A DNA stretch of 41,673 nucleotides from an uncultured bacterium. Lineage in GTDB: Bacteria > Lernaellota > Lernaellaia > Lernaellales > Lernaellaceae. Below, piece after piece: positions 5,652 through 40,594 of the stretch. Each line of letters begins with the position of its first letter. Positions within the stretch are counted from its first letter, which is position 1. The stretch covers positions 1-41,673 of the forward strand of contig CAZHPN010000031.1 of the NCBI GenBank assembly GCA_964534375.1, read 5' to 3'. The translations under genes and the position numbers were made by a program. The notes below the pieces were generated by a model. It was given only the letters and a program-made list of their open reading frames with translations. It was not told the DNA's origin and searched no databases.

Positions 5652-5737
5652 TCTCACGCGGAGACGCAGAGGGCGCGGAGGATTCGGCGCGGTTATGCCA
5701 TTCAGGCTCTTCGCGATTTTCCCGCCTCCGCGGGAGA
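5652..5737. repeat. Inverted-arm short tandem repeat element (8-9-mer ACGCGGAG/ACGCAGAG)
   Basis: Left arm TCTCACGCGGAG-ACGCAGAG-GGCGCGGAG. Right arm CTCCGCGGGAGA (5726-5737) matches the left arm with 1 mismatch. Confidence 0.7.
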
Positions 5738-5743
5738 ATTATT

Positions 5744-6301
5744 TCACGACGGGCAGCCGGACAGGCAGCTATCCCAATCGGTGCGGCACGTCGCGGCGCG
5801 GGCCGCGTCGCAGGTGGTCAGCGGCTTCAGACACGCGATCGCGGCGCTGTTGCAGGTTTGCCAACATTGCGTGCGGGATAACTCGGTCTGGCAACTGAAT
5901 TCCTTATCGCAGTCGATGAAGGCGGCATCCCAGGCCACGTCGCAGGTCCAGAGGCAGTCATCCGCCGCGCACGCGGTTCCGGTGCACTTGGCGAGGCACG
6001 CGTTGTAGGTGGCGTCCAACGGGGCGATGCACTGCGCGTAACCGGCGGAACTGCAGCCGGTCGAATCGTCATTGTCATCGTTGTCGTCGTCGTCGTCCGT
6101 CGCGGAGTCATCGTCATTGTCGTCGTCGGTGGACGAGGAGTCGTCATCGTCGTCGGGCGAGGCGTCGTCATCATCGGCCGGCGAAGCGTCGTCGTCGACG
6201 ATGTAGTAGTTGTTTGTCGCGCCTTTGCCGCCGCACGCGACCAGCAAGGCGACGCCGAGGCACAACAAGGCGCCCAGCGCCAGGAAGAAATAGCGAGTCA
6301 T
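5744..6301 (-). CDS. Lipoprotein with Asp-rich linker and 16-Cys C-terminal domain
   Basis: AAGGAG RBS, ATG 6301, lipobox LLVAC, DDDASPADDD tract, Cys-rich helical C-terminus. Confidence 0.85.
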   Translation of the reverse strand: MTRYFFLALGALLCLGVALLVACGGKGATNNYYIVDDDASPADDDDASPDDDDDSSSTDDDNDDDSATDDDDDNDDNDDSTGCSSAGYAQCIAPLDATYNACLAKCTGTACAADDCLWTCDVAWDAAFIDCDKEFSCQTELSRTQCWQTCNSAAIACLKPLTTCDAARAATCRTDWDSCLSGCPS

Positions 6302-6366
6302 GGTCGTCTCCTTTTTTGTGGCGAACGCGCCTGCGCCGTTGCTCAGTGGGCCACTGCGCCCGCCGC

Positions 6367-6437
6367 GCGTCAAGAAACTTTACAAGACTTTTACATCCCG
6401 GTTGACGCGAAGCCATTCCGTTTTTATGTTAACATAA
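6367..6437. promoter_or_regulatory. Candidate operator sites in the divergent promoter region
   Basis: TTTACA direct repeat at 11-nt period (6379, 6390), inside GCGTCAA...TTGACGC. Perfect palindrome TTATGTTAACATAA at 6424-6437. Confidence 0.5.
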
Positions 6438-6526
6438 CTGATGAAAAGGCGATCGGCCGTGCGGGTTGGCCGTCGCGGAACAGATTGTCTTTCTCTTGGC
6501 GGAAAAACGCTCTAAGGGAGGAATGA

Positions 6527-6901
6527 ATGAAAGCGACGAATTTGATTTTTGTTCTCTTGGTTGCGGTGCTGGTCGCCGCGAGCTTCGCGCTGTGGGGCTG
6601 CGCCAGCAAAAGCAGCAGCAGCAGCGGCAGTCCGAGCAAGGCGGATGATGACAACAGCGGCGCGGACGACGATAACGGCGGCTCGGTGACCGCCGCTTGC
6701 GAGGCGTTCCTGGCCAAATGCAACCTCTCCTCGATAGCCGGAGAGTCGTGCAACTATTATGAAGGCCTCGATGTCGCCCCTTGCTTCACGACCGCGCTCT
6801 CCAATTACTTCAATTGCCTGTCCGCGGCGGGCTGCGTCCCTGACGCGGCATGGGAAACCTGCGCGACGAATCTCGAAACCGCTTCGCTGGCTTGCGAATA
6901 G
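6527..6901 (+). CDS. Small lipoprotein with Ser/Asp linker and 8-Cys domain
   Basis: GGAGG RBS, signal peptide with LWGC lipobox, ADDDN repeats, 8 Cys in the C-terminal domain. Confidence 0.85.
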   Translation: MKATNLIFVLLVAVLVAASFALWGCASKSSSSSGSPSKADDDNSGADDDNGGSVTAACEAFLAKCNLSSIAGESCNYYEGLDVAPCFTTALSNYFNCLSAAGCVPDAAWETCATNLETASLACE

Positions 6902-7167
6902 CGAATAGCGCTCGATTCGCGACAAGCGAAAAATTGAACGCCGGCTGCGGACGAATTGTCTGCCGCCGGCGTTGTTGCATCGCTGCGGTACGCCGCTCCG
7001 TGGCCCGGAACTTATGTGTTTTGGAGAAGGCGCAAGTGAGGGTGGTGGGGCGATAGTTCGCCACCGTCGTCATCGTTGGTCTTCGCGCCTTTCCGCCGCT
7101 TGTCGACGGTTATTCGCGATGGTATTGTCAATTCGTTCCGCGAAACCCCTGTTCCAAGGAGACGCTC

Positions 7168-7758
7168 ATGCTTCCGCTGATGATCGTTGCGGCGCTGGCG
7201 GTCGCTCTGTTTCTGGCCCTGCTCGGCATTTACAATCGGCTGGTCGCGGGCCGGAATTTCTTCAAGAACGCCTTCGCCCAGATCGACGTGCAATTGAAGC
7301 GGCGAAATGACCTGATCCCCAATCTGGTCGAAACGGCGAAGGGCTACATCAAACATGAACGCGAAACCTTGGAGGCCGTGACGGCCGCGCGCAACCACGC
7401 TGTCGACGCGAGCACGTTGGCGTCGGCCAGTCCGGGCGATCCGGCGGCGATGAAGGGCCTGATGCAGGCGGAAGGCGCGTTGACCGGCGCGCTGGGCAAG
7501 TTGATGGCGGTGGTCGAGGCGTATCCCGACCTGAAGGCGAATCAGTCGATGAACGAGGTCATGGAAGAACTCACCTCGACCGAAAACCGGATCGCCTTTG
7601 CGCGCCAGGCGTTCAACGACGCGGTGACCGCGTACAACATCGATCGCGAACGCTTCCCGAACATCGTCATCGCCAATTCGTTCGGCTTCCAGGCCGCGCA
7701 ACTGCTGGAGCCGATCGAAGCCGCCGCCGAGCGCCAGGCGCCGAAAGTTTCGTTCTGA
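7168..7758 (+). CDS. lemA: LemA family protein
   Basis: N-terminal TM helix, YNRLV, IDVQLKRRNDLIPNLVE, EAYPDLKAN and ENRIAFARQAFND motifs. Confidence 0.95.
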   Translation: MLPLMIVAALAVALFLALLGIYNRLVAGRNFFKNAFAQIDVQLKRRNDLIPNLVETAKGYIKHERETLEAVTAARNHAVDASTLASASPGDPAAMKGLMQAEGALTGALGKLMAVVEAYPDLKANQSMNEVMEELTSTENRIAFARQAFNDAVTAYNIDRERFPNIVIANSFGFQAAQLLEPIEAAAERQAPKVSF

Positions 7759-7783
7759 CCAGCGCTCCAGGCATGGCCGTGCG

Positions 7784-9748: not shown

Positions 9749-9938
9749 ACGGTAAATCGCCCCTCCGGAAAATGCGCTCGCCAATCATCCCGTTTCGGCG
9801 CTGTCTGTGCTTTTTCTCGTGAGAATCTTGTAAGGTTTTTCCCCGGGCGAACCTGGGAAATCCCCGATAACGGCGAAGACGTGTTGAGCGCAGAATCTCG
9901 CGCGGGTGGGGCACTGCGCCGAGTCGGGGAAGGAGTGG

Positions 9939-12344: not shown

Positions 12345-12394
12345 GCGCCGGTTTCAGACGCCGATAGCGGACCGGGCAGGCGGCGAGCCGGGTT

Positions 12395-12806: not shown

Positions 12807-13700
12807 ATGATTGCGCATCAGGGCGAATGGGCGGCGTTGACGACCGCCTTGTGTTGGACCGTCACCGGGCTGGCCTTCGAGGCCGCCGCGCGACGGATCG
12901 GCTCGCTCTCGGTCAACATCCTGCGGATGTTCGCCGCGTTGATTTTCCTGACGCTTTTCTCCGCGATTTCGCGCGGGCGGTTTTTTCCGTTCGACGCCGA
13001 CGTGCACACGTGGTTCTGGTTGTCGCTGTCGGGCCTCGTCGGGTTCACGCTCGGCGACCTGGCGCTCTTTCGCGGCTACCTGCTGATCGGCGCGCGACGC
13101 ACGCTGCTGATCGCGGCGTTCGTGCCGGTCTTCACTGCGCTCGGCGGTTGGCTGCTGCTCGACGAAACGCTGAACGCGCGCGACTGGTGCGGCATGGCGC
13201 TGACCATCGCCGGCGTCGCAGTCGTCATCCTCGAACGGCGCGCGGATGCCGCCGCCGTGCCGCGAAAAACCTTATGGCTCGGCGTGCTGTTGGGCCTGTG
13301 CGCCGCGCTCGGCCAAGCGGTCGGGCTGGCGTTTTCGAAAAAGGGCATCGGCGATTTCGACCCGTTTGCCGCGACCCAAATCCGCGCCTTCGCCGGCACG
13401 ATCGGCTTCATGGTGATCTTCACCGCGATCCGTTGGTGGCCCAACGTTTGGCAAGCCGCAAAAGACTACCCGGCAATGCAGCGACTGACCCTCGGCGCGT
13501 TTTTCGGCCCGTTTCTCGGCGTCGGTTTTTCGCTGATGGCCGTGCAACACGCGAAGGCCGGCGTTGCGGCGACGATCATGTCGCTGACGCCCGTGTTCAT
13601 CATCGCGCCCGCGGCGCTGATCTTCAAGGAAAAGTTCACGGCCCGCGCCTTCGCCGGGGCTGCGCTGGCGGTCGGCGGATCGGCGCTGTTGTTTATGTAG
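12807..13700 (+). CDS. DMT/EamA family transporter
   Basis: About 10 hydrophobic helices in two EamA-like repeats (GEWAAL..., GDLALF, LTPVFII). Confidence 0.9.
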   Translation: MIAHQGEWAALTTALCWTVTGLAFEAAARRIGSLSVNILRMFAALIFLTLFSAISRGRFFPFDADVHTWFWLSLSGLVGFTLGDLALFRGYLLIGARRTLLIAAFVPVFTALGGWLLLDETLNARDWCGMALTIAGVAVVILERRADAAAVPRKTLWLGVLLGLCAALGQAVGLAFSKKGIGDFDPFAATQIRAFAGTIGFMVIFTAIRWWPNVWQAAKDYPAMQRLTLGAFFGPFLGVGFSLMAVQHAKAGVAATIMSLTPVFIIAPAALIFKEKFTARAFAGAALAVGGSALLFM

Positions 13701-13706
13701 GAGGCC

Positions 13707-13740
13707 GGAGCCAGGAGCCAAGAGCCAGAAGCTAGAAAGC
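13707..13740. repeat. Heptamer tandem array (GGAGCCA-type)
   Basis: GGAGCCA GGAGCCA AGAGCCA GAAGCTA between convergent stop codons. Confidence 0.7.
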
Positions 13741-13746: not shown

Positions 13747-14781
13747 CTATTCTTCGTCAATCGACGGGGCGGCCAACTGCCCGCACGCCGCGAGAATGTC
13801 GCGGCCGCGCGCTTTGCGCAGCACTGCGGTCACATTGTGGTCGATCAGAATTTTCTGAAACTGGCGGACGCGTTCTTCGGTCGGCGGCTGACATTCCGAC
13901 CCCGCGAACCAATTGACGGCGAGCAGATTGATTTTCGGCCGCAGGTCCGGCGCCAGGCGCGCGAGGCGGTGGGCATGTTCGTCGGAATCGTTGACGCCGG
14001 CGACCAGCGAATATTCGAACGTCACGCGGCGGCGGTGCGGCGTCGGAAAACGACGGCAGGCGTCGAGCAGTTCCTTGAGCGGATATTTGCGATTGGCCGG
14101 CACTAGCTTGTTGCGCGTTTCGTCGTCCGGCGCGTGCAGGCTGACGGCGAGGCTTACGTCGAGCCGCCGGCCGAGTTCGTCCAATTGCGGCACGAGCCCG
14201 ACGGTCGAGAGCGTCACCTTGCGCGAACTCAGATTGCAGCCGTGATCGGCGTAAAAAATGTTGATGGCGTCGATGACGTTTTCCAGGTTGTCGAGCGGCT
14301 CGCCCATGCCCATGAACACGACGTTGCTGATGCGACGTTCGCCGGCGACGCGTTGCGCGGCAAGATATTGCTCGACGATTTCGCCGGCCGTGAGGTTGCG
14401 CGTGAAAGACATCATGCCCGTGCGGCAGAACGCGCAGCCCCAACGGCAGCCGACCTGCGAACTGACGCACAACGTCAGCCGGCTCAACTCGGGGATCAAC
14501 ACGCTTTCGATGCGTTTGCCGTCGGCCAGGCCGAAGGCCATTTTTTGCGTGCCGTCCTCGCCGGTCAACGTCTCGACGGCGGGCAGGCGAAGAATCTCGA
14601 ACTTTTCCGACAACCGTTCGCGCAAACCTTTGGCGATGTCGGTCATTTCGTCGAACGTGGCGGCGTCGTTTTTGTAGAGCCAGCGGAAAATCTGCCGCGC
14701 GCGGAAGGGTTTTTCGCCCATCGCGGCAAGCTCCGTTTCCAGTTTGGGCATCGTCAGACTTTTGATGCAGATTTTATCCAC
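13747..14781 (-). CDS. rlmN: Dual-specificity RNA methyltransferase RlmN (radical SAM)
   Basis: CVSSQVGCRWGCAFC, MGMGEP, SLHAP, EY and AACGQL motifs. GTG start. Confidence 0.96.
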   Translation of the reverse strand: MDKICIKSLTMPKLETELAAMGEKPFRARQIFRWLYKNDAATFDEMTDIAKGLRERLSEKFEILRLPAVETLTGEDGTQKMAFGLADGKRIESVLIPELSRLTLCVSSQVGCRWGCAFCRTGMMSFTRNLTAGEIVEQYLAAQRVAGERRISNVVFMGMGEPLDNLENVIDAINIFYADHGCNLSSRKVTLSTVGLVPQLDELGRRLDVSLAVSLHAPDDETRNKLVPANRKYPLKELLDACRRFPTPHRRRVTFEYSLVAGVNDSDEHAHRLARLAPDLRPKINLLAVNWFAGSECQPPTEERVRQFQKILIDHNVTAVLRKARGRDILAACGQLAAPSIDEE

Positions 14782-14825
14782 AGGAAGGACCCGTTTGTAA
14801 GGGACGTGTAATGGAATGGATCTTC

Positions 14826-14938
14826 GTCCGCAGATTTACGAAGATTTTCGCAGATTTCTCGTCTGTAGTCCGGCGATCTTCGGTCAAATGCGTCGTTTCC
14901 GTTCGAGAATCTGCGTCGTTCTGCGCTAATCTGTGGAC
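14826..14938. repeat. Inverted-arm decamer repeat element (CGCAGATTTN)
   Basis: Three units CGCAGATTTA/CGAAGATTTT/CGCAGATTTC, then three inverted units ending AATCTGTGGAC. Confidence 0.8.
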
Positions 14939-14952
14939 AAAAACACTCACAG

Positions 14953-16179
14953 TCACCTCAAGCCCTTTCCCGCCGCGTCGCCGGCCACGAAGCCTGTGGA
15001 AAACGCCGCCTGCAAATTATATCCGCCGGTCACCCCATCGATATCGAGCAATTCCCCGCAAACGTACAATCCGGGGACCAACCGGCTTTCCATCGTCCGC
15101 GGCTCGATCTCGTCGAGCACGACGCCGCCGACGGTGATCAGCGCTTCGTCCCAGCCGTGGACGCCGACGACCTTGAGCGGAAAATCTTTGCACAAATCGC
15201 CGAGGGCGCGACGCGTGGATTTGCCCACCTCGGCGCAGCGCTGGTCCAAGTTCAGCCCCAGCCGCTTCACGAACGGCGGAATCACGGCTTGCGGCAGCAG
15301 ACCGTTCAATACTTGCTGCAGCGGCGCCTTGCCGTTCGCGTCCAGGTCGCGGCGCAACCGGGCGTCGAGTTGCTCGCGGTCGAGCGCCGCTTTGAAATCG
15401 AGCGAGATCGCCGGCGCGCTCAGGTCGGCCACGTCGCGCGACAGATCGATCGGCACGGCACCGCCCAGCGCGTTTTCCGAAAACAGCGCCTCGCCGAAGC
15501 CGTCGGCCACGGCGCGTTTGCCGTCGCGCAACGTTACGCGCACGTTGTGCAGCAAAATCTCGAAGGGCGCGAAATCGGTCTCGATCGCCAGCGGCGTCAG
15601 CGCGGGCCGCGGCGTCGCCAGCGTGTGGCCGAGGCGTTGCGCGAAGCGGTAGCCGTCGCCGGTCGAGCCGGTGCGCGGATAGCTTTTGCCGCCGGTGGCG
15701 AGGATCAGGCGGTCCGCGAAAATCTCGCCGCGCGCCAGCCGCAGATGAAAAAGGTCGCCCGTTTTTTCGATATCCTTGACGTCGGCCTCGGTGCGCACCG
15801 CGCCGCCGTCGCTGCGCGCCCAGCGGTAGAGCGCCTGCGCCACATCGGTCGCCTTGCCGGATTTCGGGAAATAGCGTCCGCCGCGTTCGACGACACACGG
15901 AACCTGCCGCCGTTCGAGAATTTCGAGAAGGTCCGGGGCGAAGAAGCGGGCGAACGCGCCGCGCAGGAAATCGCCGCCGCGGCGGTAGCCTTCGACGAAC
16001 AACTCGACCGGTTTGTCGTTCGTGACGTTGCCGCGACCCTTGCCGGAAATGCTCACCTTGCGGCCCGTCTGCCGCATTTTTTCGAGCACGAGCGTCTTCG
16101 CGCCGGCGCGCGCCGCGGCCCCCGCGGCCACCAGCCCCGCCGCGCCGCCCCCGACAATGACGACTTCCCAGCGTTCCAT
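14953..16179 (-). CDS. BaiN/YhiN (HI0933) family FAD-dependent oxidoreductase
   Basis: GGGAAG, GRKVSISGKGRGNVTN, ATGGKSYPRTGSTGDG, GELLDIDG and GGYNLQAAFSTG motifs. Confidence 0.92.
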   Translation of the reverse strand: MERWEVVIVGGGAAGLVAAGAAARAGAKTLVLEKMRQTGRKVSISGKGRGNVTNDKPVELFVEGYRRGGDFLRGAFARFFAPDLLEILERRQVPCVVERGGRYFPKSGKATDVAQALYRWARSDGGAVRTEADVKDIEKTGDLFHLRLARGEIFADRLILATGGKSYPRTGSTGDGYRFAQRLGHTLATPRPALTPLAIETDFAPFEILLHNVRVTLRDGKRAVADGFGEALFSENALGGAVPIDLSRDVADLSAPAISLDFKAALDREQLDARLRRDLDANGKAPLQQVLNGLLPQAVIPPFVKRLGLNLDQRCAEVGKSTRRALGDLCKDFPLKVVGVHGWDEALITVGGVVLDEIEPRTMESRLVPGLYVCGELLDIDGVTGGYNLQAAFSTGFVAGDAAGKGLR

Positions 16180-21199: not shown

Positions 21200-22441
21200 G
21201 TGGCGGAAAAACTGAACGTGACGCGCAGCGAAGCGCTCTTCGCCGAGGCGCAGACGTTGATTCCGGGCGGCTGCCTGGGCATTCGGCGGCCGTACAACTT
21301 TGTGCCGGGCGAATATCCCATTTTTCTCGACCGCGCGCAGGGCGGGCGGATTTGGGATGTCGACGGCAACGTTTATGTGGATATGCTTGCGGCCTACGGC
21401 CCGATCATCCTTGGCCACCGCGAAAAGGAGATCGACGACGCGGTGATCGCGCAGATGGAAAAAGGCTTTTGCATGAGCCTCGTGCAACCGCAGCAAAACG
21501 AGTTGGCGAAAAAGTTGCGCGAGCTGATTCCGTGCGCCGAGAAGTCGATTTTCGTCAAAACGGGCAGCGACGCGACCACGACCGCCGTCCGCATCGCGCG
21601 CGGTTATACCGATCGGTTGAAGATTCTGCGGTGCGGCTATCACGGCTGGCACGATTGGTGCGTCGAACAGCGCGGCGGCGTGCCTGCGAAGCTTTACGAA
21701 GACACGCACGAATTCGAGTACAACGATCTGGCCGGCCTCGACCGCCTGCTCGAAGCGCACAAGGGCAACATTGCGGCGATCATCGTGACGCCGGTGGGGC
21801 ATCCGCTGGGGCATCCGGTGCAGGCCCCCGCGCCGGGATTTTTGGAAGGCGTGCGCGAGCGGGCAACTGCCAGCGGCGCGGTGCTGATTTTCGACGAAAT
21901 CCGCTCGGGTTTTCGCGTGTCGCTCGGCGGCGCACAAAAACGTTACGGCGTCACGCCCGACGTGGCGTGCTTCGGCAAGGCGATGGCGAACGGCTACCCG
22001 CTTGCCGCGGTGGTCGGCAAGGCGCGGTTCATGGACGTCGCGGTAAGCAAGGTTTTCATTTCCAGCACGTTTTTCCCGAATTCGCTGGAGCTGGTCGCGG
22101 CGCTCAAAACGATCGAAATTCTCGAACGCGAAAAAGCGCTCGAAGCACTCTGGGCCCGCGGCGAAAAATGGTTGGCCGAGGTGCGCGCGATCGTCGCAGC
22201 GAGCGGAGCGCCGGCGGAATTGTCGGGCATCCCGCCGATGCCGTTCATCACTTTTCCGGCCGACGCCGCGAAAAAATACAAGGAACGCCGCACACGCTTT
22301 TACACCGAACTGATCCGCCGCGGCGTGTTCCTACAGCCGTTTCATCACGGTTACATCATGGTTCGCCACACCGACAAAGACCTAGCGCAAGCGGCGAGGG
22401 CGATCGAGGAGGCGCTGGCGGTGGTGAAGAAGACTATGTAG
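21200..22441 (+). CDS. kat: Class III PLP aminotransferase, probable 3-aminobutyryl-CoA aminotransferase (Kat)
   Basis: GSA-aminomutase-like fold (DVDGN, YHGWHD, LIFDEI, FGKAMANG). PGG-LGIRRPYNFVPGEYPIF and FISSTFFPNSLE segments resemble Kat as I recall it. Abuts kamE. Confidence 0.7.
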   Translation: MAEKLNVTRSEALFAEAQTLIPGGCLGIRRPYNFVPGEYPIFLDRAQGGRIWDVDGNVYVDMLAAYGPIILGHREKEIDDAVIAQMEKGFCMSLVQPQQNELAKKLRELIPCAEKSIFVKTGSDATTTAVRIARGYTDRLKILRCGYHGWHDWCVEQRGGVPAKLYEDTHEFEYNDLAGLDRLLEAHKGNIAAIIVTPVGHPLGHPVQAPAPGFLEGVRERATASGAVLIFDEIRSGFRVSLGGAQKRYGVTPDVACFGKAMANGYPLAAVVGKARFMDVAVSKVFISSTFFPNSLELVAALKTIEILEREKALEALWARGEKWLAEVRAIVAASGAPAELSGIPPMPFITFPADAAKKYKERRTRFYTELIRRGVFLQPFHHGYIMVRHTDKDLAQAARAIEEALAVVKKTM

Positions 22442-23204
22442 TCGCGGCCAACCGCCGCCGTTCGATCAATTTTTCGATGATGAATCCCGCGACGTGTTCG
22501 GCGTACGAGCCGGGGCCGAACCCGGCGTCGTAGCCGAGTTCGCGGGCCAGTTTGTGGTCGATGCGCGGGCCGCCGCAGATGAGAATGACCCGCTCGCGCA
22601 CGCCGGCCGCTTCGAGCAGTTCGACCAGGCGCGTCAGGTTCTGCTTGTGGAAGCCGCGCTGCGTGACCACCTGGCTGACCAGCGCCGCGTCGGCTTTTTT
22701 CTCGACGATGACGTCGAGCAGCCGCTCCGGCGGCACCTGCGCGCCGAGGTTCCAGGCGTCGATCATCGCATAGCGTTCGAGGCCGTAATGGCCGTGGTAG
22801 CCCTTCATGTTCATGATCGCGTCGATGCCGACGGTGTGCGCGTCGGCGCCGATGCAGGCCCCGACGACGACGAGTTTGCGGCCGAACACGCGGCGGATTT
22901 TTTCGTCCGCCGCCTCGCGGGTGATGGCGTTGGTCTCGATCTTTTCGACGCGAATTTGCGTCACGTCGACGGATTCGCGGGTGTGGCCGTAGACGATGAA
23001 AAACGAATAGCCGCCCAGATCCTCGCCGTGGACGACCGCCGGGTCGCGCAGGCCCAGCTTGCGCGCGAGCTGCCGCGCGGCCTCGGCCGACTCCGGCGAA
23101 TACGGCACGGGCAGAGTGAAACTCATCTGCACGGCGCCGTCGCCGAGGTCGTCGCCGTAGGGGCGGACCTTCGTCGGGTCAAGCAGTTTCGGGCCGTCGG
23201 GCAT
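22434..23204 (-). CDS. kamE: Lysine 5,6-aminomutase beta subunit (B12-binding)
   Basis: VRPYGD...DG.VQMSFTLP N-domain, DAHTVGIDAIMNMKG (DxHxxG plus PLP Lys), GYDAGFGPG. Confidence 0.93.
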   Translation of the reverse strand: MPDGPKLLDPTKVRPYGDDLGDGAVQMSFTLPVPYSPESAEAARQLARKLGLRDPAVVHGEDLGGYSFFIVYGHTRESVDVTQIRVEKIETNAITREAADEKIRRVFGRKLVVVGACIGADAHTVGIDAIMNMKGYHGHYGLERYAMIDAWNLGAQVPPERLLDVIVEKKADAALVSQVVTQRGFHKQNLTRLVELLEAAGVRERVILICGGPRIDHKLARELGYDAGFGPGSYAEHVAGFIIEKLIERRRLAATT

Positions 23205-24744
23205 CGATCTTCTCCGCGAGGAGGTCGTACAGCGGGTTGACGTAATCCGGGCTCTTGGGCACGACGCCGTCCTTGCCCTTGCCGCCTTCGGGCGGGCGCT
23301 GGATGTCGGCGAAACGGCCGGCGGCGATGGCCGCAAACAGGCCCTCGCGCGCGACGCCTTCGAGCATGGCGATCGCCTGGTCGAGCACCTCGGCGCCGCG
23401 CCGGACGATCCACGAATCGCGGCCGAGTTCGAGGTTCTCGCCCAGGTGCCGCGCCGCGTGAAAGGTCAGCCGCGCGTTCTTGATCGCCAACGCGCGATCC
23501 ATCAGGTACGGCGTGTGCATCGCCTCGGTCAGCATGCCGAGCAACTGGATGCTCTGCCCGGTCGCGACGCCGATCAGGTTGAACAGCGTGTGCAGCGCGT
23601 AGCCGCGGAAGATGTCGCCGGTCATGTGCTTGGTCGGCGGCATGTACTTGATCGGATGGTCAGGGAACACCTCGCGAATGAGCAGCGCCTGCGCCAGATC
23701 GTACAAGAAGGCGTCGGGCACGGCCGGGTTGACCTCAAACGCGTGGCCGAGGCCGATTTGCGCGGGCGGCAGCCCGGCGGCGAGCGCGAACCGTTCGTTG
23801 ATCAGGTCGCTGGCGAGCACGGTGTGCCCGGCTTCGATCGCGTCGGCGGTGGTCAGATAGTTGTCTTCGCCGGTGTTGATTACGATGTGGGCGTACGCGC
23901 TGATCATCCGCGAAAAATGCTGGTCGACGAACGTGCGCGCCGGGTTGATGTCGCGAAAGAGCACACCGTACATCGAATCGTTGAGCATCATGTCCAGGCG
24001 TTCGAGCGCGCCCATCGCCGCGATTTCCGGCATGCACAAGCCCGAAGCGTAGTTCACCAGTTGGACATAGCGGCCGACCTCGCGGCTGACCGCGTCCAGC
24101 GCCTCGCGCATGATGCGGAAATTGGCCTGCGTGGCGTAGGTGCCGCCGAAGCCCTCGACCGTCACGCCCTCGGGCACGTAATCGAGCAGGCTCTGCGCGG
24201 TGCTGCGGATCACCGCAATGATGTCCGCGCCTTGCCGCGCCGCCATCTGCGCCTGCACGACGTCCTCGTGAATATTGCCGGTGGCGACAATGACATAGAG
24301 CCACGGCTGCGGACCCTGGCCGAGCGTCGCGACGAAATCTTCGCGGGCCTTGATCTGCTCGTCGATGCGGCGCAGACCCGCGCGCAGCAGGCGCTCGGCG
24401 TGGGTCCGCGCGGCCTGCGGGTCGGCCGGGCGATACTTGCGCAGGTCGATCACCTTGAGCGACACGCGGCGCGCCAGTTCGGCCAGGCTCATCTGGCAAT
24501 CGCGGGCCGCCGCGGCGACCAGCGGCGCTAGGCCCTCGCCAAGCCGCGCCTTCAGGTGCGTGACCAGGACATTGGGGTAGGGCACGCCCTCGTCGGTGGC
24601 GCCTTCGAGGCCCATCAGGCGCAACGTGGCGCGTTCGACGCTGTCGGTGGTGTGCCGCTGGATTTGCGCGAGCACGGGCTCGACGATGGCCACGGCCAAG
24701 TCGCGGGCGCGGGCGATCTTCGTCGGCGGCAAATCCAGGTGCAT
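23179..24744 (-). CDS. kamD: Lysine 5,6-aminomutase alpha subunit
   Basis: YVIVATGNIHED, IRSTAQSLLDYVP, NYASGLCMPEIA, NTGEDNYLTTADA and KYMPPTK motifs. Confidence 0.93.
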   Translation of the reverse strand: MHLDLPPTKIARARDLAVAIVEPVLAQIQRHTTDSVERATLRLMGLEGATDEGVPYPNVLVTHLKARLGEGLAPLVAAAARDCQMSLAELARRVSLKVIDLRKYRPADPQAARTHAERLLRAGLRRIDEQIKAREDFVATLGQGPQPWLYVIVATGNIHEDVVQAQMAARQGADIIAVIRSTAQSLLDYVPEGVTVEGFGGTYATQANFRIMREALDAVSREVGRYVQLVNYASGLCMPEIAAMGALERLDMMLNDSMYGVLFRDINPARTFVDQHFSRMISAYAHIVINTGEDNYLTTADAIEAGHTVLASDLINERFALAAGLPPAQIGLGHAFEVNPAVPDAFLYDLAQALLIREVFPDHPIKYMPPTKHMTGDIFRGYALHTLFNLIGVATGQSIQLLGMLTEAMHTPYLMDRALAIKNARLTFHAARHLGENLELGRDSWIVRRGAEVLDQAIAMLEGVAREGLFAAIAAGRFADIQRPPEGGKGKDGVVPKSPDYVNPLYDLLAEKIDARRPETA

Positions 24745-28091: not shown

Positions 28092-28366
28092 AACCGCGAA
28101 CGGATGGGATGGAACCGCGGATGAGTGGACGGGGTTTAACCGCGAATGCCCGCGAATGCCCGCGAATAATAACTGATTAAGAGCGATTCGTTTGGATTTG
28201 CATTTGTTCGCGGCCCACTATTTCCGATTGTTTCGTGCTTATGCGCGCGCATTCGTGTGCATTCGCGGTTGATGCCCAAATCCTGCCCAACCATATTCGC
28301 GTGCATTCGCGTGTGTTCGCGGTCAAAAAAACAAAACCTGCCGAACCCCCGGGCGCCTTCGCGGTT
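28092..28366. repeat. Nested inverted decamer repeat element (CGCGAATGCC / ATTCGCGTGC)
   Basis: AACCGCGAATGCC-CGCGAATGCC-CGCGAAT (28138-28167). Inverted triplets at 28241-28270 and 28295-28324. Extra AACCGCG/CGCGGTT ends at 28092, 28113 and ~28360. Confidence 0.85.
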
Positions 28367-30144: not shown

Positions 30145-30179
30145 CAGTGGTCAGCCGTCATTGGTCAGTGGCCAGTGGT
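30145..30179. repeat. Heptamer tandem array (CAGTGGT-type)
   Basis: CAGTGGT CAGCCGT CATTGGT CAGTGGC CAGTGGT between convergent genes. Confidence 0.7.
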
Positions 30180-30253
30180 CGCTCGTCCGCGGGCAGCGAC
30201 CGGTTGCGCGCGAGCGCAAAAGGGGTCGCGCTCCTTTTTTTCCTTTTCCCTTG

Positions 30254-33902: not shown

Positions 33903-34949
33903 GTGAAACACAGCAACTGGTTATTACGGATACTGTTGGCGATCGTCTTGGCGGCAGGCGCCGGCGCCTGCGGCGCGGGCAGCGGCAGCAGCACGAGCAG
34001 CATCACGGCTGACGACGATGTTTCGCCGGCCGATGACGATGCGTCGCCGGCCGACGACGATGCGTCGCCGGCCGATGACGACGTGTCGCCGGCCGATGAC
34101 GACATCTCGCCGGCCGATGACGATAGCTCGCCGAGCGATGACGACGACACGACCCGCATGGTCCTGGTGCCCGCGGGCAGCTTTGAAATGGGTTGCGAGC
34201 CGGCGGATCAGAATTGCAACGTCGACGAATATCCGCTGCATCAGGTGGACATGCCCGATTACTACATCGACGTCTACGAAGTGACCAACGCCAGCTACGC
34301 GAAGTTTCTGAATGCGCACGGCAACGTCTGCGACGGCAACCCCTGCGCCGCGTCACCGCACGCGGGCAACGATCTCGGGTTGTACCAATCGGGCACGACC
34401 TGGTTGGTCGATGCCGGCTACGAGAACCGACCGGTGATCCTCGTCTCGTGGTACGGCGCGAATGATTATTGCGCGTCGATCAACCGGCGGCTGCCGACGG
34501 AAGCGGAGCGCGAGAAGGCCGGGAAGGGCGGGAGCGACGCCTATATCTACCCTTGGGGCAACACGTGGCTCGACAACGCGGCGAACTACGACGGCTCCAC
34601 GAATCCGTACCAGGCGGGGCCGCAGCCTTGGACGACGCCGGTCGGCTATTTCGACGGCACGAATCACGGCGGCGCGTTTCAAACCGCCAACGGCGCCAGC
34701 CCCTACGGCGCGTACGACCTGGTCGGCAACGTCTGGGACTGGGTGAGCGACTGGTACGACCAGAATTATTATTCGGAAACCCCGGCCGGCGGCTGGGTGA
34801 ACCCGCAGGGGCCGACGACCGGCGCGGACCGCGTGTTGAAGGGCGGTGGCTGGGGCAGCACGCCGGTCAGCGTGCGGAATTCGCTGCGCGATTCGGCGCC
34901 GCCGGATTCGATGCTGTATTACGAGGGGTTCCGCTGCGCGCGCGACTGA
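33903..34949 (+). CDS. Lipoprotein with SUMF1/FGE-sulfatase-like domain and Asp-rich repeat linker
   Basis: GGAGG RBS and GTG start, AGAC lipobox. FEMG, YEVTN, RLPTEAEREKA, YPWG, GNVWDWV and GFRCARD motifs. Confidence 0.88.
   Translation: MKHSNWLLRILLAIVLAAGAGACGAGSGSSTSSITADDDVSPADDDASPADDDASPADDDVSPADDDISPADDDSSPSDDDDTTRMVLVPAGSFEMGCEPADQNCNVDEYPLHQVDMPDYYIDVYEVTNASYAKFLNAHGNVCDGNPCAASPHAGNDLGLYQSGTTWLVDAGYENRPVILVSWYGANDYCASINRRLPTEAEREKAGKGGSDAYIYPWGNTWLDNAANYDGSTNPYQAGPQPWTTPVGYFDGTNHGGAFQTANGASPYGAYDLVGNVWDWVSDWYDQNYYSETPAGGWVNPQGPTTGADRVLKGGGWGSTPVSVRNSLRDSAPPDSMLYYEGFRCARD
34011..34149 (+). repeat. Coding 21-nt tandem repeat, about 6 units of DDD(V/A/I/S)SP(A/S)
   Basis: GAYGACGAY-NNN-TCGCCGGCC repeated in frame. 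Confidence 0.9.
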
Positions 34950-35143: not shown

Positions 35144-35632
35144 GTGAAATACGAAGAATTGGGAATCGCGTTCCTTTTGGTGGTCGCTCTGGTCGTGGGG
35201 ATCGTCGCGAGCAACGAGACGCCGGCGACGGCGGCCAATCACAGCTTCGCCGCCGCAAGTTACCGCGTCGCGGCCGTGCCGGGCGGAAACGCCGCGCCGG
35301 CGATGCGCAAAGGGACGCCGGATTATCCCTTCGCGCAGAAGTCGGAATTCATCGACGACATGGAAAAAGAACTGGGGGTCATCCACGATGAATTGGATCT
35401 CGCCGGCGATAAAGTAGACCGGATTGGCGGCGAGGCGAAGGCCGACGCCAAGGTCAGGCTCCAGGCCGTGCGCGAAAAATGGGCGCAAACGGAGAAGAAA
35501 CTCAACCAAGCCGAAAACGCCACCGACACGACGTGGCGCGGCGTTAAAGGCGATGTCGAGAAATCCGTCGACGACACGAGAGATTCCTTCGAGAAGACGC
35601 GTCAATGGGTGAACGACACGATCAAACCGTGA
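35144..35632 (+). CDS. Exported/membrane-anchored coiled-coil protein (Sll1863-like)
   Basis: N-terminal hydrophobic helix. AQKSEFIDDMEKEL...TWRGVKGDVEKS heptad pattern. Confidence 0.7.
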   Translation: MKYEELGIAFLLVVALVVGIVASNETPATAANHSFAAASYRVAAVPGGNAAPAMRKGTPDYPFAQKSEFIDDMEKELGVIHDELDLAGDKVDRIGGEAKADAKVRLQAVREKWAQTEKKLNQAENATDTTWRGVKGDVEKSVDDTRDSFEKTRQWVNDTIKP

Positions 35633-36021
35633 TCGGGGAATCGGACGGCCGCGCCGCCGTCGCCTTTTTCGCTGTAAGAGCGCCTTTCCAGGCGCGATTC
35701 GAAATATGGCGCCCCGATGAGCCTGCCCCCGCGAAGGAGGCTGTCGATTTTCCCCTGACCGGCCAAAAGTTGGAAAACGAACTTGTTCGTGGGCGCATTA
35801 TTCGCCGCTTATTCCAGCGTGGATCGCGTTTACAGGATTGGCGAGACACCTCGGCGGACGTGCGGCGTGCAGCGATCGATTTATCGACAGTCTCGAAGAC
35901 GGGGGCGGGCGGGGCTCGTGCAGTTGGAACCCATCGCCGCCGTTGACATGCCGGCGTTGGCGCCCAATTTATTGTGTTGAACGTATTGGAAAACGAGGCG
36001 CGCCAAGGCGGCCAAAAAGAA

Positions 36022-36435
36022 ATGGCGATGACGGTGAAAAACATCGAGAAAAACGGTGCGAAAGGCGAGTCTCCCTCGGAGCTGATCGACGCGCGGATCC
36101 AGGAACTGGGCGACTGGCGGGGCAAATTCCTTGCTCGGCTGCGCGCGCTGATCAAGCAGGCCGATCCCGCGGTGGTCGAAGAGTGGAAGTGGCGAGGCGT
36201 TCCCGTATGGTATCACGACGGGATGCTCTGCACGGGCGAGACCTACAAGAACCATGTGAAGATAACTTTCGCCAAAGGGGCTTGGTTGCAGGATCCCACG
36301 CGCCTCTTCAACGCCGGCCTCGATGGCAACGCCAGGCGCGCCATCGACCTCCACGAGGGCGAGAAGATCGACGAGAAGGCGCTCAAAGCACTTGTCCGCG
36401 CGGCCGTTGCGCTCAACCAATCCGCGCGCCGCTAG
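36022..36435 (+). CDS. DUF1801 (YdhG-like) domain protein
   Basis: LGDWRG, EEWKWRGVPVW, TFAKGA and FNAGLDGNARRAID motifs. Confidence 0.9.
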   Translation: MAMTVKNIEKNGAKGESPSELIDARIQELGDWRGKFLARLRALIKQADPAVVEEWKWRGVPVWYHDGMLCTGETYKNHVKITFAKGAWLQDPTRLFNAGLDGNARRAIDLHEGEKIDEKALKALVRAAVALNQSARR

Positions 36436-36500
36436 GAGTAGGCAGCCGGCGGCGTCGGGGTTGACTGTGCTCACGGCGTCGGCGTCCGCACGCGCCATGC

Positions 36501-36542
36501 ATCCCCATCCCCCAATCCCAAATCCCCAACCCCCAGTCCCGC
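36501..36542. repeat. Heptamer array ATCCCCA-type (STRR1-like), left arm
   Basis: ATCCCCA TCCCCCA ATCCCAA ATCCCCA ACCCCCA GTCCCGC. Confidence 0.8.
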
Positions 36543-36594
36543 GTGTCCCGACTGCGGGTAATACCGCGAGGTCCGCACGTGCGTCATCCCGGCG

Positions 36595-36693
36595 AACAAC
36601 GAGGGCATCGTCCCGAAATTCATGGACGACCCGGAGTTCGAGGCAGGCCGTCACTGACAGCCTGCGACAAAACGTTTACGAGGAAATCCGAAA
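36595..36693 (+). pseudogene. Frameshifted remnant resembling the C-terminus of type I restriction subunit R
   Basis: NNEGIVPKFMDDPEF, then after one extra base near 36640, RQAVTDSLRQNVYEEIRK. Confidence 0.5.
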
Positions 36694-36779
36694 GCCGGTC
36701 GCCACGAGGCAACGCTGGGGGGGCCTTTTGCCGGCTCGGCAATGGTGTGCAGAACCGGGAACGGCGGTATCGCGGACAG

Positions 36780-36950
36780 CGGGATTCGGGATTCGGGGTT
36801 CGGGGATCGGCTTCCGGTTTCGGGTTTCGGGCAATCCACAGATCACGCAGATTGCACAGATTTCCGCGGACCGGCGGCGGCATTGAGTGACCGGGGCCGG
36901 CGGGGACATCCGGGGTTTGGGACCGGGGATTGGGGACTGGGGACTGGGGC
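36780..36950. repeat. Compound repeat block: CGGGATT heptamers, CACAGATNN nonamers, TGGGGAC heptamers
   Basis: CGGGATT-type 36780-36831, CACAGATCA/CGCAGATTG/CACAGATTT 36837-36863, TGGGGAC-type 36911-36950 (inverse of 36501-36542). Confidence 0.85.
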
Positions 36951-37025
36951 CGCTCACTCACCCAACGTATCGCGCCTTCCGACTCCGACCGGGAATCGTG
37001 CGACCGACCGTTGATCATCGAACGA

Positions 37026-38573
37026 TTATTCCGCCGGCAACGGCGGCGGCTCGAACTGCGGTTTCTCGGGATTGGGAAACGCGATTTTGGGTTCGAGCGA
37101 GAAGATCCCGGCGGCGTTGACGACGAGCAGGTAATCTTCGGTGTTGTCGAGGGCGAGGGAACTGAGGCGGCGGCCAAGATTTATCCGCCGCAGTTCGCGC
37201 AGGCCGCCGCCGGCGTAGGCGATGAGGTCGCCGGTGAAATACCGGCCGGCGAAGAGCGTCTCGTGCTTGGCGCTCCAGACGAGTTCGCTGACGCCGCGGC
37301 CGACGGCGATCGTCGCCAGCGGCCGCAACGTCGCCGCGTCGAAGATTTGCACGTCGCCCGACAGCATATTTCCGGCGAACAGGCGGCCCCCGGCGCGATC
37401 GTACGCCAGCGAATGCCGGCCGCCCCAGCGGCGCAACGCGGCGGCCTGCGGCGGGGCCGCGCCGCTGCGCTGATGTGTAAGCTGGCCGACGGCGGTTGTC
37501 GCGAAAAAACCGCCTTCGCCGTCGGGCGCGACGTCGTCGAGCGGGACGTCCCAATGCGCCAGCGACCGCAAGGTTTCGGCGTCGTAAAGCCCGAGCCGGC
37601 CGGCGGCGTCGAGCGCGTACACGCCTTCGGCGGCGTAGCGCGTCACGCGCCCCGGGCGGCCGAAAAATTGCTGCCGGGCGACAAAGAGTTCGCGGTTGTC
37701 GAGGCGGTTGAGGTAGCCGTCGCCGGTGGGCACGAAGAGCCGTTTGTTCGCCAGATCGAGCGTTAGACTGGTCGGCGCGGGGCCGACCGGCAATTGTCGC
37801 ATCTCGCCCACGTCGAAGAGAAATAAGCCCTTGTCGGAGCCGACGAGCAGCCGGTCGAAGGCGTCGACTCGTGCGAACCGCAGGTCGAGGCCCAGGACGT
37901 TCTTGAATCGATGCGGGCGGCCCGTCCAGGTCAGGACGGGGTGAATGCCCGCCGTTTGCAGCCAGCGTTCGCCGGTGAAGTCCGCGCCGTGGGCGAAGAT
38001 GTCGTTCGCGCCCGCCGCGGCGGCGGTCACGACGGACAACGCGAAGAACCAGCGGCCGACCGACCGCAAGCGGCCGGCATACAACGAGGCCAGCACCATC
38101 GCGAGTCCGGCGGCCAGCAGAGCCACGACCGGCGCCAACGGGGCGAAACGCGCCTGCACGACGAGCAGCGCGGCCGCCGTCAACGCCGGCGCGACCCACA
38201 CGCCGAGCAACGGATCGAGGTCGAAGCGCAGCAGCGCGGCAGTCCAAAGCCCATATAGGAGGATCAGCCCGGCGAGCCACGGGTCGTAGGCGGCGACGCG
38301 CAGCCACACGGCCGCCGCCGCCGCGCCGACGATCGCCGCGTAGAGCGCCAGCAACAATCGCGCGGCGCGGGCGCCGAGCAGTGCACGCAGGCGGTCGCCC
38401 TGGGCGCAGGCGGTCGCCGCGGCCAGCGTCGCACCCAGCCAGGCGGGAACGCCGAGCCACGGCGCCAGAAAGGCGAGGAGCAGACCGTGCACCACGGCGC
38501 CGGCGAAAAAGTCGAGCGCGCGCCAGGCGGGGTGGAGCGAATCGGGAATGATGACGGTTCTGCGATCGGTCAA
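37026..38573 (-). CDS. Multi-TM membrane protein with C-terminal YncE/YVTN-like beta-propeller
   Basis: About 7 hydrophobic helices, then propeller blades (LAYDRAGGRLFAGN, TIAVGRGVSEL). Probable TTG start after GGAG. Confidence 0.7.
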   Translation of the reverse strand: MTDRRTVIIPDSLHPAWRALDFFAGAVVHGLLLAFLAPWLGVPAWLGATLAAATACAQGDRLRALLGARAARLLLALYAAIVGAAAAAVWLRVAAYDPWLAGLILLYGLWTAALLRFDLDPLLGVWVAPALTAAALLVVQARFAPLAPVVALLAAGLAMVLASLYAGRLRSVGRWFFALSVVTAAAAGANDIFAHGADFTGERWLQTAGIHPVLTWTGRPHRFKNVLGLDLRFARVDAFDRLLVGSDKGLFLFDVGEMRQLPVGPAPTSLTLDLANKRLFVPTGDGYLNRLDNRELFVARQQFFGRPGRVTRYAAEGVYALDAAGRLGLYDAETLRSLAHWDVPLDDVAPDGEGGFFATTAVGQLTHQRSGAAPPQAAALRRWGGRHSLAYDRAGGRLFAGNMLSGDVQIFDAATLRPLATIAVGRGVSELVWSAKHETLFAGRYFTGDLIAYAGGGLRELRRINLGRRLSSLALDNTEDYLLVVNAAGIFSLEPKIAFPNPEKPQFEPPPLPAE

Positions 38574-38644
38574 TTTCTTGGCTCCGAATTGATGATGGCG
38601 CCGCGCCAACTCGGCGCGGAGATCTGGAGGAGCTTTTGGAAATT

Positions 38645-38703
38645 ATGCGAGTCATGGGACCTATATGACCGATAGGACTTATAGGACCGATATGACGTAT
38701 AGA
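38645..38703. repeat. Nonamer tandem array (ATAGGACCN-type)
   Basis: ATGGGACCT ATATGACCG ATAGGACTT ATAGGACCG ATATGACGT. Confidence 0.85.
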
Positions 38704-38802
38704 AACGGCGGCTCTTTTCGGCGATCGGGGGCAGTTGTTCCGCCGCAAGGCGGCGCGGCTTCGCCTCTCGCTCAAGCCTTTTCGTTGTCGTTGTATCGAC
38801 GA

Positions 38803-40332
38803 TCATTTCCCGAAGCTCTCCGCGATCGCCGGCAGATCGAGTTCGAACGCGCCCGCGGCGCCGACGCCGAGCGCGCGGTCGCCGGCCATCGTCAAGCTGC
38901 GCACGCCGCGGCCGACCGGCAAACGCAACGGCGGGCCGGCCGCGTCCGGCCGGAAGACCAGCGCCTCGGAGGAGAGTTCGACGCCGGCCAGCAGCAGGTC
39001 GCGCGCGCGGTCGTAGGCGAGGCACGTCACGCCCCGCGGGGCCGGCAGGCGCGTCACGGCCTGCAGGTTGCGCGTCTCGAGGACGACGATCGCCGCCGAC
39101 AGCCAGTCGGCGACAAACAGCCGCTCGCGCTCGCGATCGTAGGCCAGGGCGCCGCCGAGGCAGGTCGGCATCGCATAAACGCCGCGCGGCGTCAACGTCG
39201 CCGGCTCGAGCGCCTCGACGCCGCGCAGCAGCGCCAGGCGATAGAGCGCCGGCGCGCCCGGCGCCGCGATCAGGTCGACGCCGACGCCCGAGCGGCGCTC
39301 GACCGCGGAATCGAGATTGGGCGCGCGCAGGACCGCGAGCAGATCGAAGCGGCCGGCCGCGTAGACGACCTGCGCCGCCTCGTCGACGAAGACGCGGCGG
39401 ATCGGTTCGTCGAGCCGCCGGCGCCGGTCCAAACCATCGGCCGGGCGAAAAACGACCCGGCCATCGCCCGCGGCGAAGATCAGCGCGCGGCGGCCCGTGC
39501 AGATCGTCGCGACGTTGCCGGCCAGCGGCGCGGGTTCGAGCGTCTCGGGCCGGGCGCTCAACCGGGTCAAGCCGGGGGGAGCGTCGGCGGCCAAGAGCGG
39601 CGCGCCATCGCAGTCGACGGTCACGGAAAGCAGGCGCGCGGAAGAGGGGAGGGGAATCGCCGGGACGTCGCCGAGGCCGATGTCCGGGACGTTGGTGATG
39701 GCGCCGCCCGTCAGGAAAAACCGGACGCGCGGGTCGGCCGGGGGCGTCGGCGCCGGCCCGCGGAAAAAGGCAAACGCCGACAGCAGCGCCGGCGCGAGCA
39801 GCACGAAGGCGACCCACTCGAAACGCCGCAACCGCCGCTCGCCGCCGACGACGAACAGCGCCGTGAGGTCGATGAAGGCCAAGGCGCCGATCGCGAACCG
39901 CAAGCCGTCGCGCGTGAGCCACGGCTGCCGCGCGACGGCAAAGCTGATGGCGAACGCCAGCGCCACCCAGGCCGCCGCCGGCCCCACCGGCCCCGCGAAA
40001 AAGAACCCCGCAAATGCCGCCGCCGCGACCGCCGCCGCCAGCGTCGCGCGATCGACCAAGCAGAGCACGCCCAGCGCTGCCGCGACGACGATGACCGTCC
40101 AGAGCCGATACGAACCGCGGCTCGCCGCCACCAGCCGGCGATGCCGCGTGCGCCACGCCGGGGGCGCCCACGGAACCACCGCCACGCCCAGCGCCAGGGC
40201 CACGGCGAGCGGCGGCCACGCGGTCGCCAGCGCCCAATACAGCAGCGCCAGCGGCGCGGAATAGACGAGGCACAGCGCGGGCGCACTCACGACGCCGTGA
40301 AGGATGTTGCTCGAGCGCGCTTGGGTTGCCAC
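38803..40332 (-). CDS. Multi-TM membrane protein with C-terminal beta-propeller (probable paralog)
   Basis: Hydrophobic N-terminal half, LAYDRERERLFVAD and RLPVGRGVRSL blades. GTG start. Confidence 0.7.
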   Translation of the reverse strand: MATQARSSNILHGVVSAPALCLVYSAPLALLYWALATAWPPLAVALALGVAVVPWAPPAWRTRHRRLVAASRGSYRLWTVIVVAAALGVLCLVDRATLAAAVAAAAFAGFFFAGPVGPAAAWVALAFAISFAVARQPWLTRDGLRFAIGALAFIDLTALFVVGGERRLRRFEWVAFVLLAPALLSAFAFFRGPAPTPPADPRVRFFLTGGAITNVPDIGLGDVPAIPLPSSARLLSVTVDCDGAPLLAADAPPGLTRLSARPETLEPAPLAGNVATICTGRRALIFAAGDGRVVFRPADGLDRRRRLDEPIRRVFVDEAAQVVYAAGRFDLLAVLRAPNLDSAVERRSGVGVDLIAAPGAPALYRLALLRGVEALEPATLTPRGVYAMPTCLGGALAYDRERERLFVADWLSAAIVVLETRNLQAVTRLPAPRGVTCLAYDRARDLLLAGVELSSEALVFRPDAAGPPLRLPVGRGVRSLTMAGDRALGVGAAGAFELDLPAIAESFGK

Positions 40333-40375
40333 GGCGCTATTTTATGCCGGAAGCGCGAAGAACGAAACCGCGGGT

Positions 40376-40442
40376 CAATGACCAGTGAAGAGTGAACAAC
40401 GAACAGTGAACAATGAACAGTTAACAGTGGACAATGAACAAT
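40376..40442. repeat. Heptamer tandem array (CAGTGAA/CAATGAA, 9 units)
   Basis: CAATGAC CAGTGAA GAGTGAA CAACGAA CAGTGAA CAATGAA CAGTTAA CAGTGGA CAATGAA. Confidence 0.9.
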
Positions 40443-40488
40443 CCAAGACGCCAGCCATGCGGCGCCGACCGGCGCGGCGCCCGGCCGT

Positions 40489-40594
40489 GTAGAAGGGGCG
40501 GGTCCCCGTGCCCGCCCTCGAGATGGCGCGCCCGCGGGCGCCATCCTTTCCCAATCCCGAATCCCGAATCCCGGGGCGGGCCCCGTGCCCGCCC
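40489..40594. repeat. Two REP-like palindromes flanking a hairpin and an ATCCCGA array
   Basis: GTAG-AA-GGGGCGGGTCCCCGTGCCCGCCC (40489-40517) and GGGGCGGGCCCCGTGCCCGCCC (40573-40594). Hairpin GATGGCGC...GCGCCATC and ATCCCGA repeats lie between them. Confidence 0.7.

Follow-up and report, generated by a model that had tools for sequence, protein, structure and literature searches.

Short intergenic tandem arrays in a Lernaellaceae genome share the arm grammars of hairpin cassettes carrying four-helix-bundle and GxxExxY genes

We analyzed a 41,673-nucleotide stretch of DNA from an uncultured bacterium of the Lernaellaceae (assembly GCA_964534375.1, contig CAZHPN010000031.1, positions 1 to 41,673; hereafter the window), in which short tandem arrays with units of 7 to 10 nt lie scattered between the genes. 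These arrays belong to a widespread, poorly described cassette system that is also present in many other bacteria, and their family-specific grammars are those seen in the arms of filled cassettes, whose cargo is a four-helix-bundle or GxxExxY gene. They have a grammar, a polarity and a position at stop codons in common, the orthologous sites of relatives are empty, and loops are shared between copies. On balance, we favour the view that the window arrays are gene-less copies or half-copies of hairpin cassettes resembling the intervening sequence (IVS) of 23S rRNA, which spread as units and were then lengthened or eroded by slippage. That they moved, and by which agent, we infer from these patterns.

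Excess of arrays between genes

Contig C31, which forms the window, belongs to a 6.3-Mb genome with 64% GC in 381 contigs. Genes were called with a self-trained codon model, which yielded 4,761 genes and 81% coding sequence; those in the window were checked against Pfam. Gene gaps were scanned for periods of 7 to 10 nt, with dinucleotide shuffles as the control. The 5,678 intergenic bases of the window contained 11 such arrays, compared with a mean of 0.4 and a maximum of 3 in 200 shuffles. Genome-wide, the scan revealed 719, 31, 252 and 61 intergenic arrays of period 7, 8, 9 and 10, respectively, compared with 1–6 per period in each of five shuffles; the period-9 count is partly low-complexity noise. 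Period-7 arrays alone (2–6 in shuffles) reached a density of 613 per Mb in intergenic as opposed to 12 per Mb in coding sequence, an approximately 50-fold difference, and were present on 225 of the 381 contigs. Copy number is widely spread in the heptamers, from 2 to 30 units per array, and nearly fixed at 2–3 units in the 10-mer family.

A strict three-unit count misses the 8–10-nt type, returning 0–1 for three of the 8–10-nt units named in an earlier note on this DNA, because these have 2.7 copies or mixed spacing. The pattern SRCRRA, which denotes the (C/G)RCRRA core of the 8–10-mer arms, recovers them, with 182 intergenic matches compared with 6–13 in shuffles.

Every array listed in the earlier note was found at, or a few bases from, its coordinates. 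The density indeed exceeds that of shuffled intergenic sequence, and the same units recur elsewhere in the genome: CAGTGAA/CAATGAA in 88 gaps, CGGGATT in 82 and CAGTGGT in 36, each compared with none after shuffling. The note had further described each locus as having its own unit. Many different words do occur, but they are not all unrelated and sort into three grammars: a GxxExxY type at 5652, 14826, 28138 and 36837, a heptamer type at 13700, 30145, 36501, 36780, 36919, 40376 and 40549, and a suffix type at 38654. Its description of the arrays as non-coding needs one correction: the array at 13700 begins within the stop codon of the EamA gene. The window contains neither complete genes nor remnants of the four-helix-bundle or GxxExxY families, and an Rfam scan of it gave no matches.

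Arm grammars follow the cargo genes

The genome has eight matches to the four-helix-bundle family PF05635 (five above the cut-off; one with an internal stop) and three to PF13366, the GxxExxY family (one truncated); their NCBIfam names are TIGR02436, TIGR04258 and TIGR04256 (10 of 11 scanned). At each of the 11 loci an array lies no more than 200 nt away on one side or the other, and at seven on both, compared with 2.7% of all genes; this baseline counts intergenic arrays only, and two gene ends were estimated. The link to these two gene families, which the earlier note had named, is thus borne out.

Across genomes, the type of arm differs with the type of cargo. Heptamer arms accompany TIGR02436 four-helix bundles at 64 of 83 loci (93 given, five not located, five too short). 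GxxExxY (TIGR04256) loci have arrays of period 8–10 at 28 of 37 and of period 7 at one (39 given, one short, one not located); a direct-repeat control gave 11/37, a value that is too high because adjacent arms and wrongly placed gene ends contribute to it. Their grammar is (C/G)RCRRA plus 2–4 nt, repeated about three times. The tandem core is oriented inward in 24 flanks upstream and 26 downstream of the gene, and the opposite way in 6 and 4. At the 73 suffix-type loci (TIGR04258; 80 fetched, seven short) the arms are ATAGGACCN-like 9-mers: period 9 was found in 38 upstream and 19 downstream flanks and period 7 in 1 and 3, while 33 upstream and 49 downstream flanks had no array. One suffix-type gene, L008 (C71:16400-16939), has a 9-nt array upstream and another apparently inside its coding sequence. 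Between four-helix-bundle proteins and their heptamers, distances correlated weakly (Mantel rho 0.20; 66 rows with one duplicate, kin not being independent). Scans with single proteins yielded only one locus in the genome collection and two in viral sequences.

A search for further cargo between arms returned mostly ordinary genes flanked by two separate elements. An open reading frame (ORF) of 111 codons at C192:790-1122, HEPN/DUF86-like by eye, lies between GCGGAAT-type arms and is possibly a further cargo. Upstream of three weak PF05635 matches in family relatives (L082, L083 and L088) lie T-rich arrays with an 8-nt period, which may represent a fourth arm grammar.

A common layout of the arms

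The purine-rich arm leads in 136 of 145 inverted pairs, and the arm with more G than C leads in 121 of them, as it does in 35 of 40 pairs flanking four-helix-bundle genes of other genomes. Among 982 strong arrays, a complementary partner faces inward in 269 and outward in 32; most arrays are therefore solo arms. The outer end overlaps, or lies at most 10 nt from, a stop codon in 197 of 442 cases compared with 40 expected, and the share of 40–150-nt gaps that carry arrays falls from 22% (convergent genes) through 8% to 4% (divergent genes). Enrichment at gene 3′ ends, which the earlier note had suggested looking for, is accordingly present. Within the window, its statement that arrays often lie between convergent genes applies to four of eight loci (5652, 13700, 30145 and 36501–36950); the other four lie between co-directional genes and none between divergent ones.

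Mirror-image arms, likewise claimed for several loci, are seen in the hairpins at 14823–14941 and 28131–28327. The units at 40376 and 40549 differ and are not complementary. Those at 36501 and 36919 are (74% over 47 nt), but they face outward, opposite to the rule in this genome, and are therefore probably two separate half-elements.

Evidence for insertion and copying as units

One occupied site is the junction of the HI0933-like flavoprotein gene and rlmN. In all five family relatives with both genes at the locus (seven were searched) the stop and start codons of the two overlap, whereas here the genes are 171 bp apart and the 14826 hairpin sits in between. Similarly, the GxxExxY cassette on C166 spans 636 bp at a junction of 16 bp in a relative. 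We compared 142 syntenic junctions: the eight with an array here, one of which is a GC-rich false positive, are 57–175 bp longer than those of the relatives, none of which carries an array, while the other 134 show a median length difference of 0, nine exceeding 50 bp.

Evidence of copying comes from the segments between the arms. The genome contains 201 paired elements. Among 102 elements with spacers of 11–70 nt, 35 fall into multi-copy spacer families, compared with 11–15 in shuffles. The 38 copies of one hairpin family, spread over 36 contigs, have a common loop, and many of these share flanks as well. A copy on C127 can be aligned with the 28138 element across the spacer (78% over 134 nt), and the doubled arm of this element aligns together with a non-repeat linker to the arm that lies upstream of the C16 GxxExxY gene (83.5% over 91 nt). 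The shared linker, the empty 14826 site of the relatives and the 38-copy loop family indicate that each element was most likely copied and inserted as a whole. The empty junctions, multi-copy spacers, shared loop and shared linker also support the suggestion of the earlier note that the arrays are empty non-autonomous cassettes.

Proposed mechanism and cargo proteins

In a full cassette, two repeat arms facing inward would enclose the gene for a four-helix bundle or a GxxExxY nuclease. Whole hairpins would be copied to new sites, where arm length may then drift by replication slippage. An insert just beyond a stop codon would be tolerated, the hairpin presumably concealing it in operon mRNA much as rRNA intervening sequences are concealed.

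In GxxExxY proteins, residues E23, D63, E73, K75, Q87 and Y91 are invariant in 31 of 31 sequences, which we take to represent an intact PD-(D/E)XK core with a QxxxY motif. A sequence search for a related solved structure found none. PF13366 is listed in the PD-(D/E)XK superfamily as a family with unknown function and multiple transfers in PMC3424549. For the four-helix bundle, a match to the five-chain structure 2GSC was obtained, and a resemblance of PF05635 to Avd is described in PMC10053308. By analogy with RAYT and REPIN (see below), it is possible, and we suggest it tentatively, that the cassette proteins mobilise the elements in trans: the PD-(D/E)XK nuclease would recognise its own arm and cut it, while an Avd-like pentamer would bind single-stranded heptamer arms. 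We are doubtful about the wider proposal of a transposase-free mobile system, in which GxxExxY nucleases and Avd-like pentamers would each read their own arm code, copy or insert hairpins bounded by these arms directly behind stop codons, seed some 1,000 gene-less copies in this genome and so explain the excess of STRR (short tandemly repeated repetitive), GGGAATC and TAACTGA sequences in bacteria generally.

Alternative explanations

The arrays might be simple repeats grown in place, through polymerase slippage with a 7-nt bias and mirroring by template switching, with the cassette genes sharing their gaps incidentally. Slippage, cited as a hypothesis in the pertinent section of Rehm 2015 (PMC4692102), would suit the variable number of heptamer units, the many solo arms and the mostly unique spacers. 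It does not, however, yield the fixed arm polarity, the cargo-specific periods across phyla, the near-constant unit number of the 10-mer family or the two-sided flanking of cargo loci, and it has already been weakened by the common non-repeat loop of the 38-copy family and by the linker shared between 28138 and C16. As the sole origin of the arrays it seems unlikely to us.

Only a slim chance is given to the explanation that the hairpins are retained for an RNA job, in which operon mRNA is cut by RNase III or stabilised near 3′ ends and the cargo proteins bind the hairpins as regulators, so that the elements would be domesticated and not selfish. The stems of the 14823 and 28131 elements are long and stable, the position at stop codons and the convergent excess fit such a role, and, according to the experiments described in PMC4990558, the stem of an rRNA intervening sequence that bears heptamers is a substrate of RNase III in vitro. 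Yet the elements show no strand preference: among 100 co-directional elements, G-U pairs numbered 96 and A-C pairs 75 on the sense strand (p 0.13), and the sense strand folded better in just 49 of 99. Nor are the sites conserved, as none of the eight orthologous junctions carries an array in relatives. The common role at the RNA level that the earlier note had considered is thus not supported. Intrinsic terminators were rejected as a candidate function, a U-tract following the stem in only 5 of 201 elements; in GxxExxY-type arms, T precedes the stem rather than follows it. Among metatranscriptome contigs from three sets, the carA-carB cassette was represented by a few exact pieces of 151–271 nt in set X5, none of them bridging it. 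The sole RNA joint across this cassette was an approximately 90%-identical piece with unknown filler, and hence likely stems from another organism.

A further possibility is that the elements are passengers of another enzyme, either a RAYT (repetitive extragenic palindrome (REP)-associated tyrosine transposase, with Y1 HUH chemistry) or a reverse transcriptase (RT), and that the small genes slipped into the loop. HUH chemistry is not expected to leave target duplications, and none are apparent here; the genome has seven matches to the RAYT family PF01797, one of these genes adjoins a member of the 38-copy family, and arrays cluster with REP-like hairpins. For six of the seven matches, though, no array lies nearby, so that we rejected RAYT as a general partner and the link to RAYT genes raised in the earlier note fell away. 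This explanation would also leave open why three unrelated arm grammars each track one cargo family across phyla, and we hold it to be very improbable. At C33:6105-7201, a RAYT-family gene is bordered on one side by a hairpin from the 38-copy family and on the other by a further heptamer array.

Several observations weigh against our preferred reading of the arrays as gene-less copies of hairpin cassettes. Most spacers are unique (86 of 130 without a match elsewhere), and flanking direct repeats that would mark target-site duplication were not in excess in the 201 elements over permuted flanks, although the ends are fuzzy and the test is crude. Presence or absence at the level of strains was not seen: contigs of sequencing run X2 cross the arrays at 28138, 30145, 36780–36949 and 38654 without a difference, but represent the same population, and only short pieces came from the remaining three DNA runs. 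Some 1,000 arrays contrast with just 11 cargo loci, one GxxExxY gene being truncated and one four-helix-bundle gene having an internal stop, and a partner arm exists for only about 270–350 of the 982 strong arrays. No transposase, integrase or full reverse transcriptase was found among the cassettes; the genome has one RT fragment. Linkage alone could explain the match between grammar and cargo, and the relevant part of Rehm 2015 (PMC4692102) reports GGGAATC repeats with stable flanks and no link to mobile elements.

The distribution among relatives cuts both ways. Heptamer density is 101 per Mb here, 0–3 in six family relatives and 0–75 in seven class relatives, and it rises with the PF05635 count (Spearman 0.66, n=13; non-random samples of 73–356 kb). 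On the other hand, four family relatives with 2–4 PF05635 genes have no heptamer arrays in the 73–140 kb sampled; the presence of cargo is therefore not sufficient.

Relation to known systems

The component parts of the system, namely the heptamers of Xanthomonas and Nostoc and the 23S intervening sequences, are already known. The CGGGATT and GGGACTG arrays of the window are the same kind of word as GGGAATC of Xanthomonas and GGGGA(C/T)T of Nostoc, whose polarity and pairing are those observed here and for which the pertinent part of Rehm 2015 (PMC4692102) names no partner gene. Further traits in common are the non-coding period-7 excess, the G-rich strand near stop codons, the inverted pairs between convergent genes and the rarity between divergent ones. 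The GGG tracts capable of forming quadruplexes are confined to a minority family, however, as the commonest words (AAAAAGG, AATGGCG, AACAGTG and AATGCGG) lack GGG. Here dozens of words occur together, many not quadruplex-capable, and 8–10-mers have the same layout.

The 23S intervening sequence is described in the part of PMC4990558 used here as a four-helix-bundle ORF (S23p/PF05635) in the loop of a terminal-inverted-repeat stem, with tandem GACAGAT heptamers upstream of the ORF whose number varies by strain. Filled cassettes here likewise have an inverted-repeat stem around a PF05635 ORF, of which the window copies have the stem only. The elements differ in lying between protein genes and not in rRNA, in being mostly gene-less and in having two further cargo families. 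REPINs are extragenic inverted REP doublets that form hairpins and exist in many gene-less copies, few of which flank a candidate mobilising gene, according to the passages on them in Bertels and Rainey 2011 (PMC3116915). The elements of the present genome resemble them as extragenic inverted doublets in multiple copies with common spacers, but their arms are tandem short words instead of palindromic REPs, and the flanked genes encode a PD-(D/E)XK nuclease and an Avd-like protein instead of a Y1 transposase. The TAACTGA heptamers of the Beggiatoaceae form intergenic sets within operons in fixed orientation to the next gene, for which a mobile element or binding protein was proposed without being identified, as stated in the main text of MacGregor 2015 (PMC4679880). 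These are described as direct repeats of a single word, and that main text contains none of the terms ‘four helix’, ‘intervening sequence’ or ‘GxxExxY’. DDE-type miniature inverted-repeat transposable elements (MITEs) are set apart by their target-site duplications, for which the 201 elements, with the limits given above, provided no sign. In the case of diversity-generating retroelements (DGRs), the Avd model scored 20–27 bits with a cut-off of 80, and the lone RT fragment lies on another contig. The system operates in the manner of REPINs, with IVS-like hairpins as its elements, while membership in the REPIN, IVS, MITE or DGR class fails on the features tested.

Bacterial heptamer repeats have been known for decades without an established origin or partner, and the large families PF05635 and PF13366 have no known function. 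A full-text literature search with little coverage of subscription journals found no paper that connects arrays of this kind outside rRNA with the gene families described here; older papers may state part of this link. In this one genome, filled cassettes, empty hairpins and solo arms occur side by side in three grammars. From this a specific substrate, namely its own arm, can be predicted for every orphan protein, swap controls are built in, and the question becomes testable. In annotation, such arms lead to false ‘inverted repeat’ or small-RNA calls.

Elements and other features of the window

Coordinates are collected in Table 1. The spacing of 8 or 9 nt in the 5652 element is too irregular for Tandem Repeats Finder (TRF) or the periodicity detector; it was recognised by the SRCRRA grammar and by blastn, which gave 14 matches on 11 other contigs. 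Its arms are nearly identical to those flanking the GxxExxY gene of locus L180, and its fold is no better than that of shuffles (z -1.1). The 14826 element had no blastn match at E<=1e-3 on other contigs. At its outer edge stands TTATCCACA (14774–14782), which we take to be a DnaA-box-like word; it may be chance, because it also matches the start of a GxxExxY arm.

Table 1. Array elements of the window and the genes bordering the 14826 element.
Feature	Position	Strand	Remarks
Gene-less GxxExxY-type hairpin element	5652..5737	+	Arms ~5652-5678 and ~5723-5737; directly after pgl stop; convergent genes
Solo G-rich heptamer arm	13698..13737	+	GGAGCCA/GAAGCCA type; begins in EamA stop codon
rlmN	13747..14781	-	Downstream gene of the junction holding the 14826 element; Pfam
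Gene-less GxxExxY-type hairpin	14823..14941	.	Arms 14823-14857 and 14904-14941; fold z -3.8
HI0933-like flavoprotein gene	14953..16179	-	Upstream gene of the junction holding the 14826 element; Pfam
Gene-less GxxExxY-type element	28131..28327	.	10-nt unit; arm 28135-28169; doubled opposite arm 28239-28277 / 28294-28327; fold z -4.0
Solo G-rich heptamer arm	30145..30180	+	CAGTGGT; four-helix-bundle type; convergent genes
C-rich heptamer arm	36501..36540	+	CCCCAAT type
G-rich heptamer arm	36780..36831	+	CGGGATT type
GxxExxY-type 9-nt arm	36833..36864	+	CACAGAT.. x3; nested beside heptamer arm
G-rich heptamer arm	36910..36949	+	GGGACTG type
9-nt semi-palindromic array	38654..38702	.	ATAGGACCN; type seen beside four-helix-bundle suffix-domain (TIGR04258) genes
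Long heptamer arm	40376..40442	+	CAGTGAA/CAATGAA
C-rich heptamer arm	40549..40573	+	ATCCCGA

The pairing of a heptamer arm with a 9-mer arm, as at 36780–36864, was found again on other contigs, and the arm at 40376–40442 shares its family with those flanking the four-helix-bundle cassette on C291. The gap that separates the C-rich arm at 36501 from the G-rich one at 36780 contains an open frame of 31 codons without a start (36562–36657), which resembles the end of a real protein and has no clear paralog. Near the last two arms, a GC-rich hairpin, presumably REP-like, occurs in two copies (40488–40516 and 40574–40594), the first preceded by GTAG; a relaxed pattern finds seven copies genome-wide. 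Elsewhere in the window, a 21-bp unit repeated 6.6 times, Asp-rich in translation, is located at the start of an FGE-sulfatase-domain ORF (34006–34144), and genes for the alpha and beta subunits of a B12-dependent D-lysine 5,6-aminomutase face an aminotransferase gene (22434–24744; Pfam).

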